NCBI GenBank assembly: GCA_947586625.1
Contig: CANPXS010000001.1
Coordinates: forward strand, 4,001 to 68,000
Direction: 5' to 3'
From: an uncultured Clostridia bacterium
GTDB lineage: Bacteria > Bacillota > Clostridia > Oscillospirales > CAG-272
Length of the DNA: 64,000 nucleotides
Part shown: positions 26,974 to 46,790 of the stretch, piece after piece
Layout: each line of letters starts with the position of its first letter
How positions within the stretch are numbered: the first letter of the stretch is position 1
Position numbers and translations under genes: made by a program
The notes under the pieces: generated by a model
The model's database searches: none
Told to the model about the DNA's origin: nothing
What the model saw: the letters and a program-made list of their open reading frames with translations, nothing else

Positions 26974-29406
26974 TTACAAAGTTTTTGAATTTTCTTGGGA
27001 AACTTTTTCGCCAGCACGCTGTTTTTCACGCCAAAAGTCATCGAGCACACGCATGACGGCGCGCCTGTCGCCCACATATCTCATATTCTGCCAGTGCGAC
27101 GGGAACAATGCCCTATACTGCGCAGTCCCGAATCTGTCGTCCACGAGCAGCACGACGCCGCGGTCGCTCTCGCTTCTTATAACGCGCCCCGCCGCCTGCA
27201 AGACCTTGTTCATGCCGGGGAACACGTACGCGAACTCGAACCCGCGCTCGCATATTCGCTCATAGTAATCGCGCAATAGATTCAGCTCCGTCGAAAGCTG
27301 CGGCATGCCGACGCCGACGACGATGACGCCCGACAGCCTGTCGCCGGGCAGATCGACGCCCTCCGAAAACACGCCTCCGAGCACGCAGAAGCCCACCTTC
27401 GTCACCTTCGGCGACTCCGTGAACTCGTCTATGAACGACTGCCGCTCGCGCTCCGACATGTGCTGCTTCTGCACCACGACCTCGACGCCACTCCTGTCGC
27501 CGAACGCGCCGCGCAAAAGCTCGAGATACGAATACGACGGCAGATAGCAGATGTAATTGCCGACCTTCGCTTTGACGACCGCCTCGATAAGCTCCGCGAT
27601 CTCACCCGCCGTCACAGCCCTGTCCGCCATTCTCGTGCTGATTTTGTCGGCGGCGAGAATGCACAGATTGTCGCGCTCATACGGCGACGGCAGCTCGAGC
27701 GTCTCGCACTCGCCGCACCCGAGCACGCGCGCGAAATAATCCGGCGGCTCGAGCGTCGCCGAGAACATCACGACAGCGCTCGCGCGTCTCATACGCTCGT
27801 CAAGATGCGCCGATGCGTCAAGGCACATGTGCGTGCAAATCACATCTCCGCCCCTCATCTCGACGAAAGCGGTGTGACGCCTGTCAAACATGTCCGCCGA
27901 CACGGCGAAATCTGACAGCATGCGCTTCACCCGCGACAGTATCTTCGCCGCGCGCCTCTCCTCGCCGCTCTCGCCTCCGCGCATCAGAAACGCTTCGCGA
28001 CCGCACATCGCCGACGCTTCCTCCGCCGCTTTCGCGACGGCGGAAAACGGCTCGCCGCCGACGTAGAACCCGCGCATCTCGCCGTCTCCGCCGACAGTCA
28101 CGTCCTCGCACATCGCCGACGCCTTCCCTATCGCGTCCTCGACGAGCGCCAGCGACTCCTTCACATCAGCGTCGCGCGACACGTCCTTCGCCGCCGTCAC
28201 CGCCGACCGCGAAAGCGACGCCGAATACATCTCTCGCGCCCTGTCGACGAGGTTGTGAGCCTCGTCGCACAGAAGCGCGTATTTTTCACTCTTGTGTACG
28301 CTGTCCGCGCCGAAGAATCGGCGCAGGTACACGCGCGGATCGAACACATAGTTGAAATCGCATATTATAATATCGCACATCTCGGCGGCGTCGAGCGACA
28401 GCTCATACGGGCAAACGCGGTGACGCTTCGCGACCTCGACCGTCAGCTCCGGCGTGATGCATTTTCCCGCTCCTACCTCGGCGACGAGCTCCCACACCGC
28501 GTCTGCGGCACGGTCATAGTGACCGCTTGCATATTCGCAGCACTCGGCGCGGCAGTATTCGCCGTCGCCGTGACCGTCCGCGCACATGCGCTCGCGCGCC
28601 AAAACCGTTATCGCGCGCAGATGATCCGTCCTTTTGCACAGCGCCGACGACGCGTCCTCCGCCGCGAGCCTCGTCGACGTCTTAGCCGTGAGGTAGAACA
28701 CCCTGTCGACGAATCCCTCGCCGACTGCCTTGACGGACGGATAGAGCGCCGCCATCGTCTTGCCCGTACCCGTCGGCGCCTGTATCATGACGCGACCGCC
28801 GCGTCTGCACGCGCGCATGACGGCTGTCATGAACTCGGTCTGACCCTCTCTCGCTCCGCCGTACGGAAACCGCAGTTTCTTTATCGCCTGCGGCATCTTC
28901 GACTTTTTTTCGAGCGTGAGATGCGCGAACCGCTCCCACCGCGATATTATCGCCATCGCCTCGGCTTCGAGTTCCTCGCGCGAGAACACGCACTCGAAGC
29001 TGCGCTCTCTGCCTGCCGACTTCGGCACATACGTTATCCTGACGGCGGCGCGCCGCTGACCCGTGCCTCGGCACCACATGAACGCGTACAGCACGCCCTG
29101 CGCGATGTGCGCCTGCGGTATCGCGCCGTTTCCGCCGAAGAACGTGCCGGGCACCGTTTTAAGCTCCTCGACGGTGTCGTATTCCTCGCCCGTATAGATG
29201 AGGTCCGCCCTGCCGTCGATGTGATATTCGATGCCGCCGCTCTCAAACTCGAATGAGAGCGGCACCTCCGCCATTGCGCATCTTCCGTCCTCGACGCGCT
29301 TGTGCGCGAGCACGCCCTCCTCGACCGTAACGCCCGACGCGCGCCCGCCGATGTCCCCGCTCCGCGCGGCTGTATCCACTATTTCGGTAACGGTGACTGA
29401 GATCAT
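26974..29406 (-). CDS. DinG/XPD-family Fe-S DNA helicase with an N-terminal PD-(D/E)XK nuclease domain
   Basis: Helicase motifs APTGTGKT, DEAH (LLCDEAHNL) and QAAGRVIRSESDRG. Four-Cys cluster C-x9-C-x3-CC. N-terminal nuclease-like GRADLIY..VEELKT. The ATG at 29406 was chosen because the ORF extension to 29469 runs into a repeat hairpin. Confidence 0.85.
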   Translation of the reverse strand: MISVTVTEIVDTAARSGDIGGRASGVTVEEGVLAHKRVEDGRCAMAEVPLSFEFESGGIEYHIDGRADLIYTGEEYDTVEELKTVPGTFFGGNGAIPQAHIAQGVLYAFMWCRGTGQRRAAVRITYVPKSAGRERSFECVFSREELEAEAMAIISRWERFAHLTLEKKSKMPQAIKKLRFPYGGAREGQTEFMTAVMRACRRGGRVMIQAPTGTGKTMAALYPSVKAVGEGFVDRVFYLTAKTSTRLAAEDASSALCKRTDHLRAITVLARERMCADGHGDGEYCRAECCEYASGHYDRAADAVWELVAEVGAGKCITPELTVEVAKRHRVCPYELSLDAAEMCDIIICDFNYVFDPRVYLRRFFGADSVHKSEKYALLCDEAHNLVDRAREMYSASLSRSAVTAAKDVSRDADVKESLALVEDAIGKASAMCEDVTVGGDGEMRGFYVGGEPFSAVAKAAEEASAMCGREAFLMRGGESGEERRAAKILSRVKRMLSDFAVSADMFDRRHTAFVEMRGGDVICTHMCLDASAHLDERMRRASAVVMFSATLEPPDYFARVLGCGECETLELPSPYERDNLCILAADKISTRMADRAVTAGEIAELIEAVVKAKVGNYICYLPSYSYLELLRGAFGDRSGVEVVVQKQHMSERERQSFIDEFTESPKVTKVGFCVLGGVFSEGVDLPGDRLSGVIVVGVGMPQLSTELNLLRDYYERICERGFEFAYVFPGMNKVLQAAGRVIRSESDRGVVLLVDDRFGTAQYRALFPSHWQNMRYVGDRRAVMRVLDDFWREKQRAGEKVSQENSKTL

Positions 29407-29423
29407 GGTTTTGTTGGTTTTTT

Positions 29424-29700
29424 GCAGGGAGAGAGAACCTTTTTGAAAAAAGTTTCTCTCTCCCTGCACCCTCTCTTTTCAAAAACTTTTACTACTTTTT
29501 TGTTTTGATAAATCTAACAAAAACAATATCCTCGGAGATAGCTTAAGATAATCACTAATCGGTCCGCTTTTGGAGAAGGTAGCATCTCCTCACTTTGTTC
29601 GGAGCTGCCACACTTTCCGCGTAAGCGGAAAGTGTCGGAGGTTTGGCGCGTAAGCGACGAGATACCCCTCTCATTTTCAAAAACTTTTATTAAATCGATT
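29424..29700 (+). repeat. composite structured intergenic repeat, copy R1 (hairpin H, tail, module C, module B)
   Basis: Hairpin GCAGGGAGAGAGAACC..GTTTCTCTCTCCCTGC (29424-29467). Tail ACCCTCTCTTTTCAAAAACTTTTA. Module C AACAATATCCTCGGAGATAGCTTAAGATAATCACTAATCGGTCCGCTTTTGGAG. Module B includes ACACTTTCCGC-GTAA-GCGGAAAGTGT (29610-29635). Confidence 0.9.
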
Positions 29701-29716
29701 CTCCCACCGACACGCG

Positions 29717-30472
29717 TCAGAACAAGTACAGCGCCTTATTCGGGAAATCAAGAAGTGAAAGCTGCTGCGAAAGTATTTGATATCCGATCACGCCGTCTAC
29801 GTCGCGCCTTTCGCGTATCTGAGAAATATCCGTAAACACCGCGTTCACATTTTTGTATACGCGAGACCCCGCCTTTATCTCGGGGACGACATATACGCCC
29901 GGCGAGTCCGCGAGCGGAGCGGCGTCTATCTTATCCGCAAGCTCGCTTGACAAAAGACACGTATTTGCGCCCGTGTCAAGGACGAATCTGTGCGTCTCGC
30001 CCGAGATCTCAAGCTCCACGACGGGCAGCCCTTCTATATAAAGCGGGAGCTTTTCCGCGCCGCAGGTGCTGATGTCGGGCGCAACCGTAATGACAGAGTG
30101 CTCATAGTCGAGCAGTATCGCCGCGCCTCCGAACGCCTCGATCCCGACGGAGCCGAGAAAGCGTATATCCGGCTCGACCGTCCTGAGCGCGTTTTCCACA
30201 TAATCCATATCCATGCGGATAACGGACAGGTCGTATACTTTGATATTTCCGAAAGCGAACTCATGCAGCGTCGATAGCACAGCGCCGTTGACCGCCATCC
30301 CTTCATTAAACAGCGCGACCTCTTTATTCTCGCCTAAAAGCTCGGGAAAATACTTGCCGTTCAGCGACGTCTGCATCGCTCCCGTGTCAAAAGCGAAGTA
30401 CCCCTCGACATCGCCGGCATCAGCCTTTATAAGTATTATCCCCAAAATATTTTTGAACTCTATTTTCTCCAT
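29717..30472 (-). CDS. fused-dimer retropepsin-like aspartyl protease, cytoplasmic
   Basis: 251 aa from MEKIEF (RBS GGGGGA). It has two halves, each with its own catalytic motif (FAFDTGAMQTSL and FVLDTGANTCLL) and a downstream G..G...L element. No signal peptide. Confidence 0.8.
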   Translation of the reverse strand: MEKIEFKNILGIILIKADAGDVEGYFAFDTGAMQTSLNGKYFPELLGENKEVALFNEGMAVNGAVLSTLHEFAFGNIKVYDLSVIRMDMDYVENALRTVEPDIRFLGSVGIEAFGGAAILLDYEHSVITVAPDISTCGAEKLPLYIEGLPVVELEISGETHRFVLDTGANTCLLSSELADKIDAAPLADSPGVYVVPEIKAGSRVYKNVNAVFTDISQIRERRDVDGVIGYQILSQQLSLLDFPNKALYLF

Positions 30473-30531
30473 GACTGTTTCCCCCGATAAGCAGCGCATG
30501 TTCTATGCGCTTTTTTCATTATTCCCCGCCG

Positions 30532-32784
30532 CTACAGCTTCTTCTCCGCAAATCTCGCCTTTATCTCATCGGTGCGCAACCGCTCCGTCATATACGCGCG
30601 GCGCAACAGCTCCGACGGAACGTAATCGTCGTACTTATCAAACGCCGGCGTCTCGTTGTCGCCGACGAGGTCGGCGACGTCGACGCCCGCCTCAAAGTCG
30701 GCGGCTATATTTCCGAGCAGCTCCTTCGCCGTCGTCTTCTCCATCTTGAACGAGATGAAGTAGCAACCCTCGTACTCGATGCCCGACAGCCCGAACCGCT
30801 TCGCATTCTTCGACAGATACCGCCGCAGCGTGCGGAACGATTTCGTCCCGAGCCACGGGAACATGCAGTACGTGAGTCCCCCGAGCGACACGAGCGGCGA
30901 GGACAGCATACCCGTGTTCCTCGCGACGCGGCGCGCGAGGTCGAGCCGCTTTGACGCGCCCGGCTTGAGATACGGATACTCCGTATCTTCCGCGAGCACG
31001 CGGTACATGCGCTCGAGTATGCGCGTGTGTATCTCGCCGAGTTCGCCCGGCCACGATATCTCCATCTTGCCCCCGACCGACTTGACGTATATCAGCTTGC
31101 GCGCAAGGTCGAGCTCCTCGACTTCCCAAACGCGTCCCGCGAGCGCGAATCTGTCGCCGACGGGCGGCGCCTCCGATATCGTGCCGATCTCGTCCGACTC
31201 ACAGCGGACCGTGTAATCCTCCGCATCCTTGAACACGGCGTAAAACTTGAATCCCGACGTCAGCCGTTCGCCCTTCATGCCGACGATCAGACCGCCCTCG
31301 TCGGTCAGCTCTAAAAAATCGTTTTTCACCATCGAGACGAGCAGCGTCCTGAAATCTTCCCTCTCGACAGCCTCGAACGGCGGCAGCGACAATATCCTGT
31401 CTGCGAGCCGCTTCGGCGACAGCTCGCCCGACGCGACGAGCGTCGACAGCGTCTGCTGAAAAAGGAGCGAGAACGGCATTTTCCTCGTCAGCGGCGGCTC
31501 TATGAACCGCTCCTCTATATAAAGCTGTATTATCGCTATCGCGCGCAAAAGCTCCCACGGCATCATCTGCGGCAGCGGCGTGTCCGGCACGGGCGCGTCC
31601 TCGCGGAACACCATCATCATTTCGGGCGGCTCTCCGCGCCGCCCCGACCTGCCGAGTCTTTGCAGAAACGACGACACCGAAATCGGCGACCCTATCTGCA
31701 CGATGCGCTCAAGCCTGCCTATATCTATGCCGAGCTCCATCGTGACAGTCGCACACGCCACCATGCGCTCCTCGTCGCTTTTGAGAAGCGTCTCCGCCTC
31801 CTCGCGTATCGACGCGGACAGATTGCCGTGATGTATCAGGAAAATATCGGGTTCGCGGCGATTCTCCGCGATCTGACGCAGCGTAGCGCACACATACTCC
31901 GTCTCCTCGCGCGAATTTGAAAACACGAGCGCGCGCCGCCCCTTCACGCAGTCGTACACATATTCATATCCGGGGTCGATCTCGCTCGGCATCTCGTCGG
32001 GCTCGAGCCCGAGATCGCCCTGCGACGGCGTTTTACGTATCTCATGCGTACCGACGTGCAGCGTCTCCTCGTCGGCGAGGTAAAAATGCTCGAGTCCGAG
32101 CCGCCACCGCAGCGGCACAGGCTTCACCTCCGGCACATCGCACACGCGCGTGTCGCCGCCCGACAGCCACTTAGCCGCGACCTCGACGTCGCCGACTGTC
32201 GCCGACAGTCCTATCCTGCGCGGACGGTGTCCGATCGCGCGCGAGATGCGTTCGAGCTGGCATATGACCTGATTGCCGCGGTCCGTGTTCGTCATCGTGT
32301 GTATCTCGTCGATTATGACGTAGCGCAGATCGGAAAATATGCGCGGTATGTCGTTCGGTCTGTTCATCAGCATAGACTCGAGCGACTCTGGCGTTATTTG
32401 CAGTATGCCCGCCGGCGACCGCAAAAGCTTCGCCTTGTGCGACTGCGCGACGTCGCCGTGCCAGTGATAGACGGGGATCCCCGTCGCGTCGAGCAGCTCG
32501 TCGACGCGCAGAAACTGATCGTTTATCAGACTCTTGAGCGGCGCGACGTATATCGCCCCGACGCTCTTCGGCGGGTCGGAGTAAAACTCCGACAAAATGG
32601 GGAACAGCGCCGCCTCCGTCTTGCCCGACGCCGTCGCCGACGTGATGAGCAGATTGTTGTCCGTGCAGAGTATAGTCTCCGCCGCCGCCAACTGTATCTC
32701 ATGCAGCCGCTCCCACCCGTGCGAATATATGTATTCCTGTATGAACGGCGAAAACCGCTCCATCACCTCTTCGGCTGATCTCAT
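30532..32784 (-). CDS. sngC: Lhr-like SF2 DExH helicase (Shango SngC-like)
   Basis: Motifs SATASGKTEAA, YVAPLKSLINDQ, VIIDEIHTM, GLSATVGD, ELGIDIG and QRLGRSGRRGE. ATG at 32784; the TTG-start extension to 32856 translates a repeat hairpin. Confidence 0.85.
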   Translation of the reverse strand: MRSAEEVMERFSPFIQEYIYSHGWERLHEIQLAAAETILCTDNNLLITSATASGKTEAALFPILSEFYSDPPKSVGAIYVAPLKSLINDQFLRVDELLDATGIPVYHWHGDVAQSHKAKLLRSPAGILQITPESLESMLMNRPNDIPRIFSDLRYVIIDEIHTMTNTDRGNQVICQLERISRAIGHRPRRIGLSATVGDVEVAAKWLSGGDTRVCDVPEVKPVPLRWRLGLEHFYLADEETLHVGTHEIRKTPSQGDLGLEPDEMPSEIDPGYEYVYDCVKGRRALVFSNSREETEYVCATLRQIAENRREPDIFLIHHGNLSASIREEAETLLKSDEERMVACATVTMELGIDIGRLERIVQIGSPISVSSFLQRLGRSGRRGEPPEMMMVFREDAPVPDTPLPQMMPWELLRAIAIIQLYIEERFIEPPLTRKMPFSLLFQQTLSTLVASGELSPKRLADRILSLPPFEAVEREDFRTLLVSMVKNDFLELTDEGGLIVGMKGERLTSGFKFYAVFKDAEDYTVRCESDEIGTISEAPPVGDRFALAGRVWEVEELDLARKLIYVKSVGGKMEISWPGELGEIHTRILERMYRVLAEDTEYPYLKPGASKRLDLARRVARNTGMLSSPLVSLGGLTYCMFPWLGTKSFRTLRRYLSKNAKRFGLSGIEYEGCYFISFKMEKTTAKELLGNIAADFEAGVDVADLVGDNETPAFDKYDDYVPSELLRRAYMTERLRTDEIKARFAEKKL

Positions 32785-32798
32785 GGTTTGATTTATAT

Positions 32799-33280
32799 CC
32801 GGAGGGAAAGGGACTTTTTGAAAAGTCCCTCTCCCTCCGGACCTCCCTCTCTTCAAAAACTTTTATTATATTTTTTATTTTGGCAAAGTAAACGGAAACA
32901 ATATCTTCGGAGATAGCTTAAGATATGCACTAATCGGTCCGCTTTTGTGCGAGGAGCATCTCCTCACTTCGTTCGGAGCTGCCACACTTTCCGCAAAGCG
33001 GAAAGTGTCGGAGGTTTGGAGCGTAAGCGACAAAACTCCCAACTTTCTACAAAAAGGTTCCTCGCAAATGAAAGAAGTCCCTCTCCCATTAATCACTATA
33101 TTTCAAAAACTTTTATTTCTTTTCTATTTTTACAAATCTGACGAAAACAATATCTTCAGGGCGGACTTAAGATAATCACTAATCGGTCCGCTTTTGGAGA
33201 AGGTAGGGGACACCTTTTACAAAAAGGGGTCCCCGAAACAAAAAAGTTTCCCCCATCTTATATCCCAAAAACTTATCACC
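32799..33280 (+). repeat. composite structured intergenic repeat, copy R2 (two tandem units)
   Basis: Hairpin CCGGAGGGAAAGGGAC..GTCCCTCTCCCTCCGG (32799-32840). It is followed by the tail, module C and module B (hairpin 32984-33008), then a second hairpin, tail, module C and hairpin. Same orientation as R1. Confidence 0.9.
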
Positions 33281-34708
33281 TTATATCACGATATCGTTCG
33301 GGTCAAAATCTGCACGTGCCGGCCTCGTCTCTGCCGCACCGACCGACTCGCCATCGCCCTTATCCTCATCGATCGCACTGTCGCCGCCCTCGTCGCTGAC
33401 GCCTCCCTCGTCGCCGTCTCCGACCGGCGTGAGCTTGACAGCGTCGCCGAGGATATCGGCAAATTCCGCCTCGGGATTCTGATAAAGGATATTGAGCACC
33501 GATATATAATCGCGTATTATCTCACGCGGCGTAATCATGATATTCGCGCCCGCCGTCTCGAGACAGACGCGGACGAACGTCTCGGGGTCGCCCTCCGACA
33601 CGCGCGGCTGCCAGTTATAGTAAAGCGCATGCAGCGCCGTCACGCGCAGGACGAGCGCCAACAGCTCGTTATCCGACAGCCTGCGCAGCCTTATGACGGG
33701 GCCGAGCATATTGCGGTACTCGCCGCTGTCGAACCTGCCGTCTGCGAGTCTGCCGCGCAGCGCCTCATAGCTGAAAAGTCCGCGACGTCTGTCCTCCAAA
33801 AACTGCGGCGTGCCGCCGAACACGAGCATCAGATGCTCCGCCCTGCCCTCGAGCGTGTCGTTATACATGGACAGTATCTTTTCGTAGTTGTTTTCGCGGC
33901 TCGTGCGATTCGGTATCTTATATAGGTTGACGCACTCGTCGATGAACACGACGAGTCCCGAATATCCTATCCCTGCGGCGAGGCGCGAGATCAGCTTGAT
34001 ATACTCGTACCAGTTGTCGTCGCCGACGATGCCGCCGACGCGCAGCGCCGCCTTCGCCTCCGTCTTGGTGTTGTACTCGCCGCGCAGATACCGCATGCAC
34101 GCGCTTTTCGACTCCTCGTCGCCGCTTTCGCACGCGTCGAAATATCTCGACAGCACGAGCGCGAAGTCAAAGCCGCCGACGCCGCCCTCTAACTCGCGCA
34201 CCGTGTCGAAAATCCTTGCGCGCACGGTCTTGTCAAACTCATCGCTGCCGACCGCAAAGCCGTCCGCCGCGACTCTCGACTTTATATCCGATATCCACTT
34301 AGCCAAAATCTGCGGCAGCGCGCCGCCGTCCGGCGACGACTTCGTCGCAAGATTGCGCACAAGCTCGCGGTACGTCGCAACGCCAGCGCCAGACGACCCG
34401 CACAGCCTGCGTTCTATCGAGAGGTCGCAGTCTGCGGTGACGAATCCCCTTTCGAGTGCGTAGCCGCGCAAAAGCTGTATCAGAAAACTCTTACCCGAGC
34501 CGTAGCGCCCGATGAGGAATCTCATCGCGCCCTCGCCCTCGGCGACGCGCTTCATATCGTCCGTCATCGCCGCGATCTCATCCGTCCTGCCTATCGCGAT
34601 ATAGGGCGCGCCCGCGCGCGGCACGACTCCCGCCGACAGCGAATTCATCAGCTGCGACAGTATTCGCCTCGGCACCCTCTCCGCGGACTGTGTATTTATA
34701 TAGGGCAT
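33281..34708 (-). CDS. sngB: DUF2791-type P-loop ATPase (Shango SngB-like)
   Basis: 475 aa with Walker A GRYGSGKS, Walker B GLVVFIDE and an acidic C-terminal tail. It lies between the TerB-like and helicase genes. Confidence 0.8.
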   Translation of the reverse strand: MPYINTQSAERVPRRILSQLMNSLSAGVVPRAGAPYIAIGRTDEIAAMTDDMKRVAEGEGAMRFLIGRYGSGKSFLIQLLRGYALERGFVTADCDLSIERRLCGSSGAGVATYRELVRNLATKSSPDGGALPQILAKWISDIKSRVAADGFAVGSDEFDKTVRARIFDTVRELEGGVGGFDFALVLSRYFDACESGDEESKSACMRYLRGEYNTKTEAKAALRVGGIVGDDNWYEYIKLISRLAAGIGYSGLVVFIDECVNLYKIPNRTSRENNYEKILSMYNDTLEGRAEHLMLVFGGTPQFLEDRRRGLFSYEALRGRLADGRFDSGEYRNMLGPVIRLRRLSDNELLALVLRVTALHALYYNWQPRVSEGDPETFVRVCLETAGANIMITPREIIRDYISVLNILYQNPEAEFADILGDAVKLTPVGDGDEGGVSDEGGDSAIDEDKGDGESVGAAETRPARADFDPNDIVI

Positions 34709-34714
34709 ATGGTT

Positions 34715-35015
34715 TATTCCCGGGGGAAAAACTTTTTATAAGAAAGTTGGCGTTTCCTTCGTAAACGCACGAGTTTTCTTCAAAAACTCTGTCCCCCCGA
34801 ACCCCCTTTTCAAAAACTTTTATTGACAATTTTTAATTATTGGTCAGGTAAAATTTAGTGCGGCTCCGAGCGCAGCGGCGAGCCGCCGATCGCTTTTGGG
34901 GAGGGGTGCGGGGAACACCTTTTCTTGGAAAAGGGGTTATCCGCCTTGTCCAAAAAAGTTTTCCCTCCGGACCTCCCTTTCAAAAACTTTTCCTGACTTT
35001 TTTATCTTACTATGA
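34715..35015 (+). repeat. composite structured intergenic repeat, copy R3 (diverged)
   Basis: It contains the tail motif TTCAAAAACT three times, G-rich/C-rich hairpins, and CCCTCCGGACCTCCCTTTCAAAAACTTTT shared with R2. Module C is degenerate (GCCGATCGCTTTTGG). Confidence 0.75.
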
Positions 35016-35020
35016 CTTTT

Positions 35021-36859
35021 TTACTCTAAATCCTGTCTGTAATCTTCAACGACTGCGTAGCCCCCGTCGCCGCCGGCTTCGAGCACGATATCGCCGATCT
35101 CGTCCGTTTCGGTCGCCGCATCGTTTATGCGCGCCGCGACCTCGTCCGCATAAATGCCGCGTTCGCGGCAATACTCGCCCTGCGCGTCAACACCCGCACC
35201 CGCAAGCACGAGACGCAGGAATCCCGCAGCGTCCCCGTCGAGCCGCGAATAAAGCCCGCCGCCGCTTACATCATCGCTTATTTCCGCCTTCGCGACTTCG
35301 ACCGCGTTCTCAACCGCATCTTCCACCGCATCCGCAACCGCAGTTGTATCCGTATCGTCGGCTTCAGCTTCCGTCTCCGTCAAAAGCTCCGTCGACGCCC
35401 ACGACGCACGCTCTATCTCCGCCGCGCTCTCCGCGTCCATGCCCACCGACAGCGCCTCGTACATGCTCCCGTCGTAGTCGCCGCCGAAAACGATGTCGTC
35501 GCTATTCTCGCCGTCCGCGCGCGTCGACTTCTTCGTTCTGTAAAACTGCGTCGGGAACTCGCGCGCAAAGTACTCGTCGACGAGCGACGCCAAATCGGGC
35601 GCAAGCTCGCCCACGCGCAGACGCGCCTTTATCCCGAGGCAAGACCGCAGCTTATTCTCCGCATATTTGACAAGCTCCGTTGCCGTCGACCGCAGTTCCC
35701 GCGACCGCACATACGACAGATACTCGATGTCGATGCGGCACTTGACGTTGTGCGCGCAAAGCGACCCGCAGAACGCGTCCCGCGAAACGACCGCCTCCCT
35801 CATCGACCCGCGCGATAACATATCGCCCCGCCGCTCAATGACATATCCGACGGCACCCGGCATATGGCGCTTGTATTCGTCCGCAGTTTTCTCTTCGAGC
35901 GCAAATTTGCTCTTCTGCCAATGGTAATCGGACGAAAGATCCATCCACGACCCGGCGCCGATGCTGCCGCCGTCGCCGGACATATAGAACTCCTTCAGCG
36001 TCGCCGCTTCGAGCACGGCGGGCAGAATGGGCGCAAGCTGCTCGAGCGGCGCTTGCAGACGGTTGATGAGACAGTAATCCGCCACCCATTCCGACAGGTA
36101 CTTGTCGAGCACCTTGTCCTTTTCCCTGTACGCGAGCCACACCGCGCACAAACTGCGCACGCCGTCCTCGGGCGCGATGACGCCGCGCAGATTAATTATC
36201 TCATACACATACAAAAGCACGTACGAGAACGACGCCGGCAGCCAAACTCCCGCCCTCGCGTTCTCGCGCCACCAAAGATAGTACGACAGCTGCGCCTTCG
36301 ACATCTGCCTGTACTGCGGCGTATACGAGAAGAAATCGACTTTTTCGCACTCGTGACCCTTCACATCCGCGTACCGCTTCGCGTCAAAGCGGAACTGCTC
36401 GTAAAAGCTGTACCGTGACGGCCACTGCATGACGCGCACACGCTTGATGAGGCCGTGCTCGGGCTCGTATTCGAGTATCGGCTCCGCCGTCGTACGCGAT
36501 GTGCGCGAGACGCTCTCGCGTCTCGGCAGGCGTAGCCTGTCCGCGTCCGTGTCCGTGTCATTATCAATATCTATATCAATACCGCCGCCGCCGCCAGACG
36601 ACCCGGTCATATTTACATTTATGTTTATATTTCTGTCTATGTTTACATTCGCGTTTATATTCACATTCGCGCCCGTGACCTCGCGGAACCGCGCCGACAG
36701 ACTGCCTCGCCCCCGCTGCGTCTCCGTCCTTGACGCTTCCGGCGCACCGAACTCTATTTCCACCGTCTCGACGTCGCGCTCGCGCCTTTGCACCGGCGGA
36801 CGCTTTTTCGGCACGAGAGAGGACAGATCCCAGAAGTCGTCCTTGTTCGTTTCAGCCAT
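35021..36859 (-). CDS. sngA: TerB-N/TerB-C domain protein (Shango SngA-like)
   Basis: 612 aa from MAETNKDDFWD (RBS GAAAGGAGAG). TerB-N-like core FFSYTPQYRQMSKAQLSYYLWWRENARAG. TerB-C-like tail ..ADEVAARINDAATETDEIGDIVLE..YAVVEDY. The ORF extension to 37108 lies in repeats. Confidence 0.8.
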   Translation of the reverse strand: MAETNKDDFWDLSSLVPKKRPPVQRRERDVETVEIEFGAPEASRTETQRGRGSLSARFREVTGANVNINANVNIDRNININVNMTGSSGGGGGIDIDIDNDTDTDADRLRLPRRESVSRTSRTTAEPILEYEPEHGLIKRVRVMQWPSRYSFYEQFRFDAKRYADVKGHECEKVDFFSYTPQYRQMSKAQLSYYLWWRENARAGVWLPASFSYVLLYVYEIINLRGVIAPEDGVRSLCAVWLAYREKDKVLDKYLSEWVADYCLINRLQAPLEQLAPILPAVLEAATLKEFYMSGDGGSIGAGSWMDLSSDYHWQKSKFALEEKTADEYKRHMPGAVGYVIERRGDMLSRGSMREAVVSRDAFCGSLCAHNVKCRIDIEYLSYVRSRELRSTATELVKYAENKLRSCLGIKARLRVGELAPDLASLVDEYFAREFPTQFYRTKKSTRADGENSDDIVFGGDYDGSMYEALSVGMDAESAAEIERASWASTELLTETEAEADDTDTTAVADAVEDAVENAVEVAKAEISDDVSGGGLYSRLDGDAAGFLRLVLAGAGVDAQGEYCRERGIYADEVAARINDAATETDEIGDIVLEAGGDGGYAVVEDYRQDLE

Positions 36860-36908
36860 GATCCGCACTCTCCTTTCGGCATAAAAAACATTTGTTCTAT
36901 ATCGTATT

Positions 36909-36937
36909 ATTATACCACAAAATTGCGATTTTGTCAA
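36909..36937 (-). promoter_or_regulatory. consensus extended -10 promoter of the Shango-like operon
   Basis: On the minus strand: TTGACA (36937-36932), 17-bp spacer ending in TGG, TATAAT (36914-36909). It lies about 50 nt upstream of the sngA-like ATG. Confidence 0.75.
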
Positions 36938-37019
36938 TCCGTTCGCAACGTTTTTTTGACGCTGCCGCCAAAAAAATAAGCGGGAGATGTGGTGCGAAAG
37001 AAAAATTGTAAGTGTATAT

Positions 37020-37542
37020 TTTGAAACGAGAGAAACTTTTTTCATTTGCGAGGAACCTTTTTGTAGAAAGTTGGGAGTTTTGTCGCTTACGCTCCAAACC
37101 TCCGACACTTTCCGCTTTGCGAAAATGTGTGTGTAACGTCTTCTCGTTACACTCGAAGCCGTCCTGCACTTTCCGCTTCGCGGAAAGTGTGGCAGCTCCG
37201 AGCAAAGCGAGGAGATGCTCCTCGCACAAAAGCGGACCGATTAGTGCATATCTTAAGCTATCTCCAAAATTATTGTTTCCGTTTACTTTGAAAAAACTTG
37301 TCATAAAAATTCTTGAAATATAGGTGTTAATGGGAGAGAAACTTTTTTCAGTTGCGAGGAACCTTTTTGTAAAAGTTTCCTCCCGCTCCTCCAAAAGCGG
37401 ACCGATTAGTGATTATCTTAAGCTATCTCCGAGGATATTGTTTCCGGTTGCTTTTTCAAAAGAAAAAATTGTAATAAAAGTTCTTGAAAAGAGAGGGTGC
37501 AGGGAGAGAAAAACTTCTTTCAAGAAGTTTTTCTCTCCCTGC
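37020..37542 (-). repeat. composite structured intergenic repeat, copy R4 (two units, inverted relative to R1-R3)
   Basis: Reverse complement of the R2/R1 module order. The long unit 37028-37290 has a 61-nt internal hairpin duplication. The short unit ends in hairpin 37499-37542, which abuts the csaB stop codon (37553). Confidence 0.9.
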
Positions 37543-37552
37543 AATAAACACC

Positions 37553-45859: not shown

Positions 45860-46400
45860 CGCCGGCGGGAATGATGCACGCTTTCCGCGAAGCGGAAACC
45901 ACCGCCGCCCAAACGGTGACAATGAGCCGGAGGCTTCCAAGCAAAACCTACGCGCACCGTGCTCGTGCGCTGACGGCTCGTCCAGCGTCAAACGCAGACA
46001 CGACGTTTTGACGGTGATATCGCCCCGTCGCGAGGGAGCTGTTCGCAGGAAGTTATAACGCGGTGTTCTTTTGGAGAGGGGGGGCGGGCGTAGGTTGGCG
46101 CGAAGCGACAAACTACCACTTTTCTCTTAATAAGAAAAGGTCCTCATCCCCGTTTATCTCTTTCTTGCGAGAAAGTCCCCCTTGTCAAAAACATGTTCGT
46201 AGGTGTGAAAGACGTCACCACGTCAGGTGTGCAAAGGTAGCTGCCGGTGGAGACGCACCGCATGATGAACCGCGTGTGAGCAGTATCTCCTCACTGCGTT
46301 CGGAGCTACGACACGTTTTCGCTTCGCGAAAAGTGTGGGAGATGCCAGTTTCGGAAACGGGTGAGCAGTAGCGCGAAAAATAATACATAAATTTGTGAAA
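45860..46400 (+). repeat. decayed tandem copies of repeat modules (module B type and hairpin/tail type)
   Basis: Examples: CACGCTTTCCGC-GAA-GCGGAAACC (~45876). GCAGTATCTCCTCACTGCGTTCGGAGCTACGACACGTTTTCGCTTCGCGAAAAGTGTGG (~46283-46340). CGTAGGT...GCCGG units, and a hairpin/tail-like stretch ending in TTGTCAAAAACATG (~46130-46195). Confidence 0.7.
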
Positions 46401-46405
46401 AGCAC

Positions 46406-46434
46406 TTGACAAATCATCAAATTTGTGGTATAAT
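46406..46434 (+). promoter_or_regulatory. perfect extended -10 sigma-A promoter with no downstream ORF
   Basis: TTGACA (46406-46411), 17-bp spacer ending in TGG, TATAAT (46429-46434). Confidence 0.75.
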
Positions 46435-46440
46435 ATAGGT

Positions 46441-46790
46441 GGTCAAGGGAAAGAGGTGTTTGTAGGTTGAGCGGGGGAGTCTGCGAATAGCTCCCTCGCG
46501 GCATGGCGAGTACGCGGCAGGTCGTCGCTGACGCGACGACCTGCGACACATTTCCGCTTCGCGGAAAGTGTGGTGAAAAACTGGCATCAGGTAATAACGC
46601 ACGAGTACGGCGCGCGTAGGTGAAGCTGGGAAGCCGGTATCTCCTCACTACGTTCGGAGATACTACACGTTTCCGCTGACGCGGACAGTGTGACGTTACC
46701 CTCACTTGGTCGGCGGCGGTTTTGCTTCGCAGAAAGTGCCGTGTAATGATTGTACAAACAAACCGCCGCGAGGCGGTTTGTTTGCATATG
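46441..46790 (+). ncRNA. candidate novel structured non-coding RNA (~350 nt)
   Basis: It is bounded by the consensus promoter and the terminator hairpin CAAACAAACCGCC-GCGA-GGCGGTTTGTTTG (46755-46784). It contains no credible ORF. Inside are a perfect 12-bp hairpin (46517-46544) and two module-B hairpin pairs. Confidence 0.5.

Follow-up and report, generated by a model that had tools for sequence, protein, structure and literature searches.

Does a protease gene that begins 59 nucleotides (nt) downstream of an anti-phage helicase gene belong to the defence system beside which it lies? The question is raised by a protein of 251 amino acids (aa), here called AspP, which is encoded on the minus strand of a 64,000-nt stretch of contig CANPXS010000001.1 from an uncultured Clostridia bacterium (Oscillospirales; CAG-272); this whole stretch is referred to below as the window. 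As judged from sequence, the three same-strand genes upstream of AspP are the Shango anti-phage system SngA/B/C, a three-gene system (10.1101/2022.05.11.491447; 10.1101/2022.11.11.516204). A preliminary description of this DNA had read AspP as a single-chain pseudo-dimeric retropepsin that is wired to the adjacent helicase/ATPase module, with proteolytic activation or abortive infection as its output.

The reading favoured here, to which we give a probability of about 0.72, is that AspP is a soluble, cytoplasmic single-chain aspartic endopeptidase that functions on its own, and that its gene was inserted beside Shango without being a component of it. The protein part of this reading draws on conserved active-site motifs, the similarity of the two halves and a predicted fold; the part that concerns Shango draws on comparison of AspP loci with Shango loci.

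The AspP Gene

The AspP gene is the minus-strand open reading frame (ORF) 29717-30472, and its product has the N-terminus MEKIEF. A longer reading of the ORF from ATG 30499 (minus strand) is possible, but homologues begin at the position of MEKIEF, and ATG 30472 is therefore taken as the start. The ribosome-binding site GGGGGA that the preliminary description had assigned to the gene is present at 30480-30485, 7 nt upstream of this ATG. An exact-sequence look-up with the AspP protein matched no record, and none of the NCBIfam models is specific to it; the nearest, TIGR02281 and TIGR03698, both fall far under their cutoffs. A named member of the AspP family carries the NCBI annotation 'aspartyl protease family protein'. 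The features of the gene are as follows.

29717..30472, minus strand: AspP coding sequence, predicted single-chain two-lobed clan AA (retropepsin-like) aspartic protease (ORF list, Pfam PF13650, homologues, AlphaFold2, Foldseek)
30074..30472, minus strand: N-lobe, residues 1-133, divergent retropepsin-like domain with the predicted flap hairpin (hhalign, model)
29717..30073, minus strand: C-lobe, residues 134-251 and stop codon, canonical Asp_protease_2 domain (Pfam PF13650)
30377..30388, minus strand: DTGA active-site motif 1, D29-A32 (sequence, conservation)
29966..29977, minus strand: DTGA active-site motif 2, D166-A169 (sequence, conservation)
30140..30157, minus strand: N-lobe hydrophobic-hydrophobic-Gly psi-loop motif LGSVGI, residues 106-111 (G107 and G110 invariant)
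29780..29797, minus strand: C-lobe hydrophobic-hydrophobic-Gly psi-loop motif DGVIGY, residues 226-231 (G227 and G230 invariant)
30251..30331, minus strand: predicted N-lobe flap beta-hairpin, residues 48-74, with flexible tip 57-60 (DSSP and model confidence; the label flap is provisional)
30480..30485, minus strand: Shine-Dalgarno-like GGGGGA (sequence)

Active-Site Motifs and Internal Duplication

AspP contains two active-site motifs, FAFDTGAMQTSL, in which the Asp is D29, and FVLDTGANTCLL, in which it is D166. The two DTG motifs of the preliminary description are both present, each as DTGA, and are invariant or nearly so in homologues. In an alignment of the close family (35 sequences, 40-75% identity), D29, G31, A32, D166, T167, G168 and A169 are invariant, together with G107, G110, G227 and G230, and T30 is conserved at ≥90%. 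Two D[TS]G motifs are found in 114 of 115 full-length close homologues and two DTGA motifs in 111 of them, at a median distance of 137 residues between the two Asp motifs. When 19 distant relatives (250-750 aa) are aligned, D29, G31, G107, G110, G227 and G230 are invariant and the D166 motif is conserved at ≥90%.

Each Asp motif is followed by a Gly element, 78-81 residues past the first Asp and 61-64 residues past the second. The elements named in the preliminary description (LGSVGIEAFG and DGVIGYQILS) are both there, whereas the spacing of 80-90 residues given for them and their label as a flap or closing element are not borne out: they contain the hydrophobic-hydrophobic-Gly motif that completes the psi-loop in clan AA (PMC2761423), here S-V-G110-I in the N-lobe and V-I-G230-Y in the C-lobe, and the predicted flap is the hairpin of residues 48-74. 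According to Rawlings and Bateman, the Asp motif and the hydrophobic-hydrophobic-Gly motif are the sole sequence similarity between the lobes of pepsin (PMC2761423).

The C-lobe is recognized by several family models. Pfam Asp_protease_2 (PF13650) covers residues 152-232 with E=1.3e-12, its score of 48.7 bits lying well over the cutoff of 24.3. Weaker matches in this lobe, to gag-asp_proteas (PF13975; 40.1 against 28.2) and RVP (PF00077; 24.1 against 20.7), also exceed their thresholds. Similarity between the two halves appears when profiles of each, built from 35 homologues, are compared: hhalign aligns the N-half with the C-half at E=7.5e-5 over 113 collinear columns, placing DTGA on DTGA and Gly motif on Gly motif.

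Predicted Fold

Structure prediction followed by Foldseek comparison, which the preliminary description had named as a check, gave a fold that is aspartyl-protease-like. The AlphaFold2 model of AspP, run on the alignment, has a predicted local distance difference test (pLDDT) score of 90.6 and a predicted template modelling (pTM) score of 0.86, and consists of two beta-rich lobes. Its sole low-confidence stretch (residues 57-60, pLDDT <50) is the tip of a hairpin whose strands, assigned by DSSP on the model, comprise residues 48-53 and 61-74. This hairpin (residues 48-74) is the probable N-lobe flap. The DSSP string of the modelled C-lobe shows no equivalent of the first flap strand, and the asymmetry of the lobes would be pepsin-like, with a single flap in the N-lobe. 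Residues 2-19 are modelled confidently as beta strands, and AspP has neither a signal peptide nor a transmembrane helix, as had been noted earlier.

In the PDB, the best Foldseek match is 9iy9 (E=4e-11), followed by hundreds of chains of plasmepsin, pepsin, chymosin and renin (E=1e-8 to 1e-10); the pepsin-type matches span both lobes, with query-normalized template modelling scores of 0.60-0.68. AspP is thus confidently predicted to be a bilobal single chain of pepsin-like fold with one conserved Asp per lobe. Because the predicted fold is protease-like and the Asp residues are conserved, the single-chain pseudo-dimer reading, which is supported by the conserved Asp in each lobe, the hhalign comparison of the halves, the AlphaFold2 model and Foldseek, stands.

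Relationship to Known Aspartic Proteases

AspP has the sequence motifs and the predicted fold of clan AA. With retropepsins, it shares the lobe fold, DTGA, the psi-loop Gly motif and the Pfam families PF13650, PF13975 and PF00077. HIV-1 protease (A2), Ddi1 (A28), SASPase, Rickettsia APRc and Pseudomonas RimB/RloA are homodimers of one lobe (PMC12239564; PMC4140852), whereas AspP consists of two diverged, fused and asymmetric lobes with a clear flap hairpin in the N-lobe only. Two lobes in one chain, as in AspP, also occur in engineered tethered-dimer HIV proteases, and AspP can be likened to a natural retropepsin of this kind or to a mini-pepsin.

Proteases of pepsin family A1 are bilobal single chains with one Asp per lobe, the arrangement predicted for AspP, and bacterial pepsin homologues (shewasins) lack a signal peptide (PMC2761423), as AspP does. 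However, AspP has no match to Pfam PF00026 (pepsin A1) at E≤0.1, falls short of pepsins by about 70-80 residues and is only 11-13% identical to them, and for these reasons is not placed in family A1. Its sequence places it with the retropepsin-like families instead, an indication that its duplication and fusion took place independently.

The closest PDB entry by both structure and sequence is 9iy9, a 420-aa 'putative endopeptidase / exported protein' of Bacteroides fragilis. In sequence searches, the AspP family profile finds 9iy9 through each of its two domains (E=1.6e-5) and also finds Ddi1 (E=1e-3). Proteins of the 9iy9-type superfamily (about 300-425 aa) contain the same collinear two-lobe module with both Asp motifs, aligning with residues 3-251 of AspP. 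Compared with this type, AspP is the bare 251-aa module: it lacks the signal peptide and the N-terminal domain of about 145 aa, and is predicted to be cytoplasmic because both are missing. Identity between AspP and the 9iy9 type is about 18-30%, AspP being from Clostridia and 9iy9 from Bacteroidota. A literature search on tandem retropepsin proteins in Bacteroides returned no paper, and no publication was found for 9iy9.

A role like that of SpoIIGA (A36) was considered because an orthologue 74% identical to AspP sits just after ftsZ. SpoIIGA is the protease that processes pro-sigma-E and has an N-terminal multi-pass membrane domain and a single C-terminal aspartic protease lobe; in many Firmicutes, the genes spoIIGA-sigE-sigG lie at the end of the division and cell wall (dcw) cluster. 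This candidate was rejected: AspP has no transmembrane segment and two lobes, no SpoIIGA family is found among its Pfam matches, and the context is not conserved. The orthologue itself (L076:5111-7759, the same locus as L002) lies at a dcw-cluster end with the order mraY-ftsW-murG-...-ftsQ-ftsZ, a 134-aa ORF and the protease gene.

The best surviving alternative to an active enzyme, although an unlikely one, is that AspP has the aspartic-protease fold without protease activity and serves instead to bind peptides or proteins or to regulate. The non-peptidase xylanase inhibitors of pepsin fold and Ddi1-type domains with conditional activity are precedents for such a module. The high divergence of the N-lobe (Pfam E=0.16) and the apparent lack of a canonical flap hairpin in the modelled C-lobe fit such a module. 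However, the DTGA and psi-loop Gly motifs are kept nearly perfectly (in 114 of the 115 close homologues and in most distant relatives), the pattern that is expected under selection for catalysis, and the Ala that follows the Gly fits a neutral-pH enzyme (PMC2761423).

If AspP is the endopeptidase proposed here, its two tandem retropepsin-like lobes would derive from an old duplication and fusion. D29 and D166, one in each lobe and each in a psi-loop, would form a catalytic dyad at the lobe interface, and the N-lobe hairpin of residues 48-74 would act as a single flap, as in pepsins. Activity would probably lie near neutral pH, because Ala follows Gly in both motifs (DTGA rather than DTGT/S), as in HIV protease and renin (PMC2761423). 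As the gene has no conserved genomic partner, its surroundings give no lead to substrates.

Size and Distribution of the Family

AspP has 226 homologues at E≤1e-3, nearly all of about 250 aa. When 1.84 billion representatives of 50%-identity clusters were searched exhaustively by profile, 6,883 proteins reached E≤1e-3; 1,039 of them also passed E≤1e-10, and 53 passed E≤1e-30. Many of the matches of 300-425 aa cover the whole two-lobe module in one stretch (query residues 3-251 against about 147-417). The single-chain pseudo-dimer architecture is therefore neither new nor unusual, the same two-lobe module occurring, by sequence match, in more than 1,000 of the 50%-identity clusters.

The longer relatives carry signal-peptide-like N-termini and an extra N-terminal domain. 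By a crude heuristic, signal-peptide-like N-termini were counted in 59 of 82 long forms versus 1 of 49 short forms, and most longer family members look exported. AspP belongs to a short (about 250 aa), signal-peptide-less and apparently cytoplasmic subfamily of Clostridia. Members of this subfamily come from metagenome-assembled genomes of gut Clostridia of rabbit, human, mouse and ruminant, and include Oscillospiraceae, Lachnospiraceae, Ruminococcus and Christensenellaceae.

Is AspP Linked to Shango?

The Shango genes of the window and the gene that follows AspP are as follows.

30532..32856, minus strand: SngC, Lhr-like DEAD-box helicase of Shango (PADLOC SngC E=1.9e-239)
33281..34708, minus strand: SngB, BrxC/BrxD-type ATPase (Pfam PF10923 E=1.8e-152; PADLOC SngB E=2.7e-160)
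35021..37108, minus strand: SngA, TerB_N protein (Pfam TerB_N E=4.9e-20; PADLOC SngA E=8.3e-44)
26974..29406, minus strand: DinG/XPD-like helicase gene, which ancestrally came directly after SngC (Pfam Helicase_C_2, DEAD_2)

From the protease side, 45 loci with a full-length or nearly full-length AspP-family member were compared, one genome per GTDB species. Searches by tblastn with SngA, SngB, SngC and the DinG-like protein found these at only 1 of the 45, with Sng genes within 10 kb: locus L001, which is assigned to the same species because it is 96-98% identical to the window. Clustering of ORFs across 46 loci gave no family present in more than 11 loci and none adjoining the protease gene. 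In a Pfam census, the 79 ORFs directly beside the gene fell into 81 families of at most 4 members each, and no conserved neighbour emerged. In one example the family member lies behind the dcw cluster and ftsZ, in another it overlaps an MGMT gene at the end of the latter, and in a third it is flanked by genes for an extracytoplasmic function (ECF) sigma factor and a helix-turn-helix (HTH)-tetratricopeptide repeat (TPR) protein. Loci of orthologues with 65-75% identity showed no synteny with the window beyond the protease gene itself.

From the Shango side, six relatives of SngC on contigs (L081-L086; SngC 67-97% identical) were examined, and the protease gene is absent from all six loci. In L081 (SngC with 97% aa identity), SngA-SngB-SngC is followed by 579 nt of repeats and then by DinG-AsnS-aminotransferase. 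In L082 and L083 (SngC 86%) this block recurs, and the DinG gene follows SngC after only 20 nt and 4 nt, respectively. Other genes lie downstream of SngC in L084 (80%), L085 (74%) and L086 (67%).

The protease-Shango neighbourhood, the conservation of which the preliminary description had proposed as a check, is thus conserved in neither direction: it is missing at 44 of 45 AspP-family loci and at all six other Shango loci. Coupling of the protease to the helicase/ATPase module, with proteolysis or abortive infection as its output, is not supported. In PADLOC, the Sng models match the three upstream genes, and AspP has no homology to SngA, SngB or SngC; nor does the published definition of Shango, with its three genes, include such a protease. 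The two attributes of a Shango component that comparison of sequences can assess, homology to a Sng protein and conserved co-occurrence, are both lacking in AspP.

How the gene came to lie at this position is indicated by the segments between SngC and the DinG-like gene.

29576..30531, minus strand: lineage-specific insertion comprising the leader, AspP and part of a repeat element (blastn against L081-L083; no counterpart in L081)
29410..29716, no strand assigned: repeated element resembling a miniature inverted-repeat transposable element (MITE), between AspP and the DinG-like gene (repeat comparison)
30493..30511, no strand assigned: hairpin in the 59-nt SngC-AspP spacer, without a T-run on the coding (minus) strand (terminator-like on the plus strand only)

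By blastn, collinearity with L081 resumes at 29575. AspP has a GC content of 52.6% and a GC content at third codon positions (GC3) of 64.7%, against a GC3 of 75-80% in asnS, the DinG-like gene, SngC and SngB. Target-site duplications were sought at the insertion borders and none is evident. The parsimonious reading of these comparisons is that AspP is a lineage-specific insertion into a SngC-DinG spacer in which MITE-like repeats have gathered too, in L081 as well as in the window. On this reading, the gene was inserted, in this lineage only, between SngC and the DinG-like gene that ancestrally followed it, and its possible transcription by read-through from the Shango operon would be an accident of position.

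Several observations weigh against this reading of AspP as a two-lobed enzyme with no part in Shango. The N-half alone reaches only 13 bits against Pfam (PF13975, E=0.16), below the cutoff, and BLASTP of the N-half against the C-half of AspP is not significant, so that the profile-profile comparison was needed to detect the similarity of the halves. AspP also lies on the strand of SngC, 59 nt downstream of it; a scan for promoters and terminators found no consensus promoter for AspP and no coding-strand terminator after SngC, and co-transcription of the two genes is likely on these grounds. Read-through co-transcription with Shango is plausible, and a secondary functional link in this lineage has a small probability. 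A second assembly, L001, keeps this arrangement, though it is of the same species. Furthermore, AspP has a weak partial PADLOC match to the candidate defence protein PDC-M08B: residues 208-249 (window 29717-29840) match two PDC-M08B models (about 128 aa) at E=5e-6 and 2e-5. Such a match suggests that one candidate defence system includes a retropepsin-like protein with a single lobe. For a functional capture of AspP by Shango, the shared strand, the likely read-through and this match are outweighed by the comparison of loci.

Two further explanations differ from the preferred one in what placed or keeps the gene here. It is improbable that AspP is the passenger of a small mobile cassette with a flanking MITE-like repeat, so that its presence would reflect spread of the element rather than a function in the host. 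The different contexts seen even among orthologues of 65-75% identity, the GC3 below that of the neighbours, and the adjacency of AspP to a repeat element in a repeat-collecting spacer are in line with such a passenger. However, the repeat stands beside the gene only in the window and L001, L005 adding a single weak match of 65 nt. The surroundings contain no transposase or integrase gene, and a target-site duplication was not identified. Moreover, the AspP family is well conserved in sequence, as expected of a functional host gene.

Recruitment of the protease as a functional fourth Shango component, an effector or activator that during phage infection is turned on by the helicase/ATPase module or processes it (proteolytic activation or abortive infection) and was acquired recently in this lineage, is judged similarly improbable. 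Its attraction lies in the position of AspP just described (same strand, 59 nt, own ribosome-binding site, no coding-strand terminator or consensus promoter in between), in the retention of that position in L001, in the PDC-M08B match, and in the general knowledge that defence systems are modular and acquire protease effectors. Yet 44 of 45 AspP-family loci have no Sng genes within 10 kb, the protease is missing from 6 of 6 other Shango loci, including the one with a 97% identical SngC, and only 4-20 nt separate SngC from the DinG-like gene in L082 and L083. In addition, the composition of AspP is atypical for its surroundings, and three Shango genes alone suffice for defence in P. aeruginosa (10.1101/2022.11.11.516204). 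Unrelated genes also occur inside another Shango locus: in L086 (4000-4790), tRNA_edit/YbaK-like and DUF3795 genes lie between SngB and SngC, and interlopers are therefore tolerated and not unique to the window.

Least probable of all is that a housekeeping-type cytoplasmic protease was captured into the Shango operon of one rabbit-gut Clostridia lineage, is co-transcribed with SngC and is beginning to serve as an accessory or effector that, once activated, could for example cleave one of the Sng proteins or a target in the phage or host; if true, this would be a caught-in-the-act case in which a defence system gains a new effector.

The Shango Cassette and Its Spacers

The start of SngC is probably near 32784 (M25) rather than at TTG 32856, because homologues are about 750 aa long and cover 96-97% of the ORF. 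The start of SngA is uncertain: GTG 37108 is probably too far upstream, and the first residues from it, MSEVWSVSDKTPNFLQKGSSQMK, are a translated repeat element. TerB-type genes upstream of SngB in L081-L086 encode 582-644 aa, against 695 aa for SngA of the window. Upstream of its TerB_N domain, SngA has a low-complexity stretch rich in Asn, Ile and Asp, NVNINANVNIDRNININVN...GGGGGIDIDIDNDTDTDAD (window 36560-36680, residues about 145-185).

The DNA of SngC (window 30533-32866 against L081:5917-8252) is 91.6% identical between the window and L081. Identity drops to about 72-81% in the segments on either side, SngA/SngB and DinG-asnS-aminotransferase. The helicase gene may thus have recombined or been transferred between these species recently.

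A DinG/XPD-like gene follows SngC in four related species (window 26974-29406; L082:8282-10732; L083:8263-10701; L081:8832-11228), with a match to PADLOC typeIV_DinG at E=1e-114. Beyond it lie asnS and then an aminotransferase gene, and the block SngABC-DinG-asnS-aminotransferase is syntenic in the four species. In L084 and L085, DinG-like genes are near Shango and do not adjoin SngC. The DinG-like gene could represent plain synteny or an unrecognized fourth partner of this Shango clade.

MITE-like elements fill the spacers of the Shango cassette, in units of about 150-300 nt and in both orientations. Copies related to the element between AspP and the DinG-like gene are found at 32803-33206, 34944-35003, 37082-37549 and 46282-46691. 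The units contain near-perfect palindromes, e.g., TGCAGGGAGAGA...TCTCTCCCTGCA, and the 20-mer CAAAAGCGGACCGATTAGTG has five exact copies, all inside 29.5-37.4 kb. An Rfam scan of 26.8-38 kb found no known RNA and no match to the repeats. The SngC-DinG spacer of L081 (L081:8253-8830) holds different repeats. The SngC/AspP junction (59 nt) is the sole junction of the cassette without a repeated element, as the preliminary description had observed.

Implications

For the locus, comparative genomics points to a recent interloper, and AspP should therefore not be annotated as a Shango effector. The case corrects the guilt-by-association inference that 59-nt proximity to a defence helicase makes tempting.

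For the protein family, two-lobed retropepsin-like proteins are abundant in bacteria and almost entirely uncharacterized. AspP provides a clean natural case of a minimal, 251-aa and predicted cytoplasmic 'tethered-dimer' aspartic protease. The two-lobed bacterial family bears on how the bilobal pepsins arose from single-lobe ancestors (PMC2761423), a significance that belongs to the family as a whole rather than to this locus.

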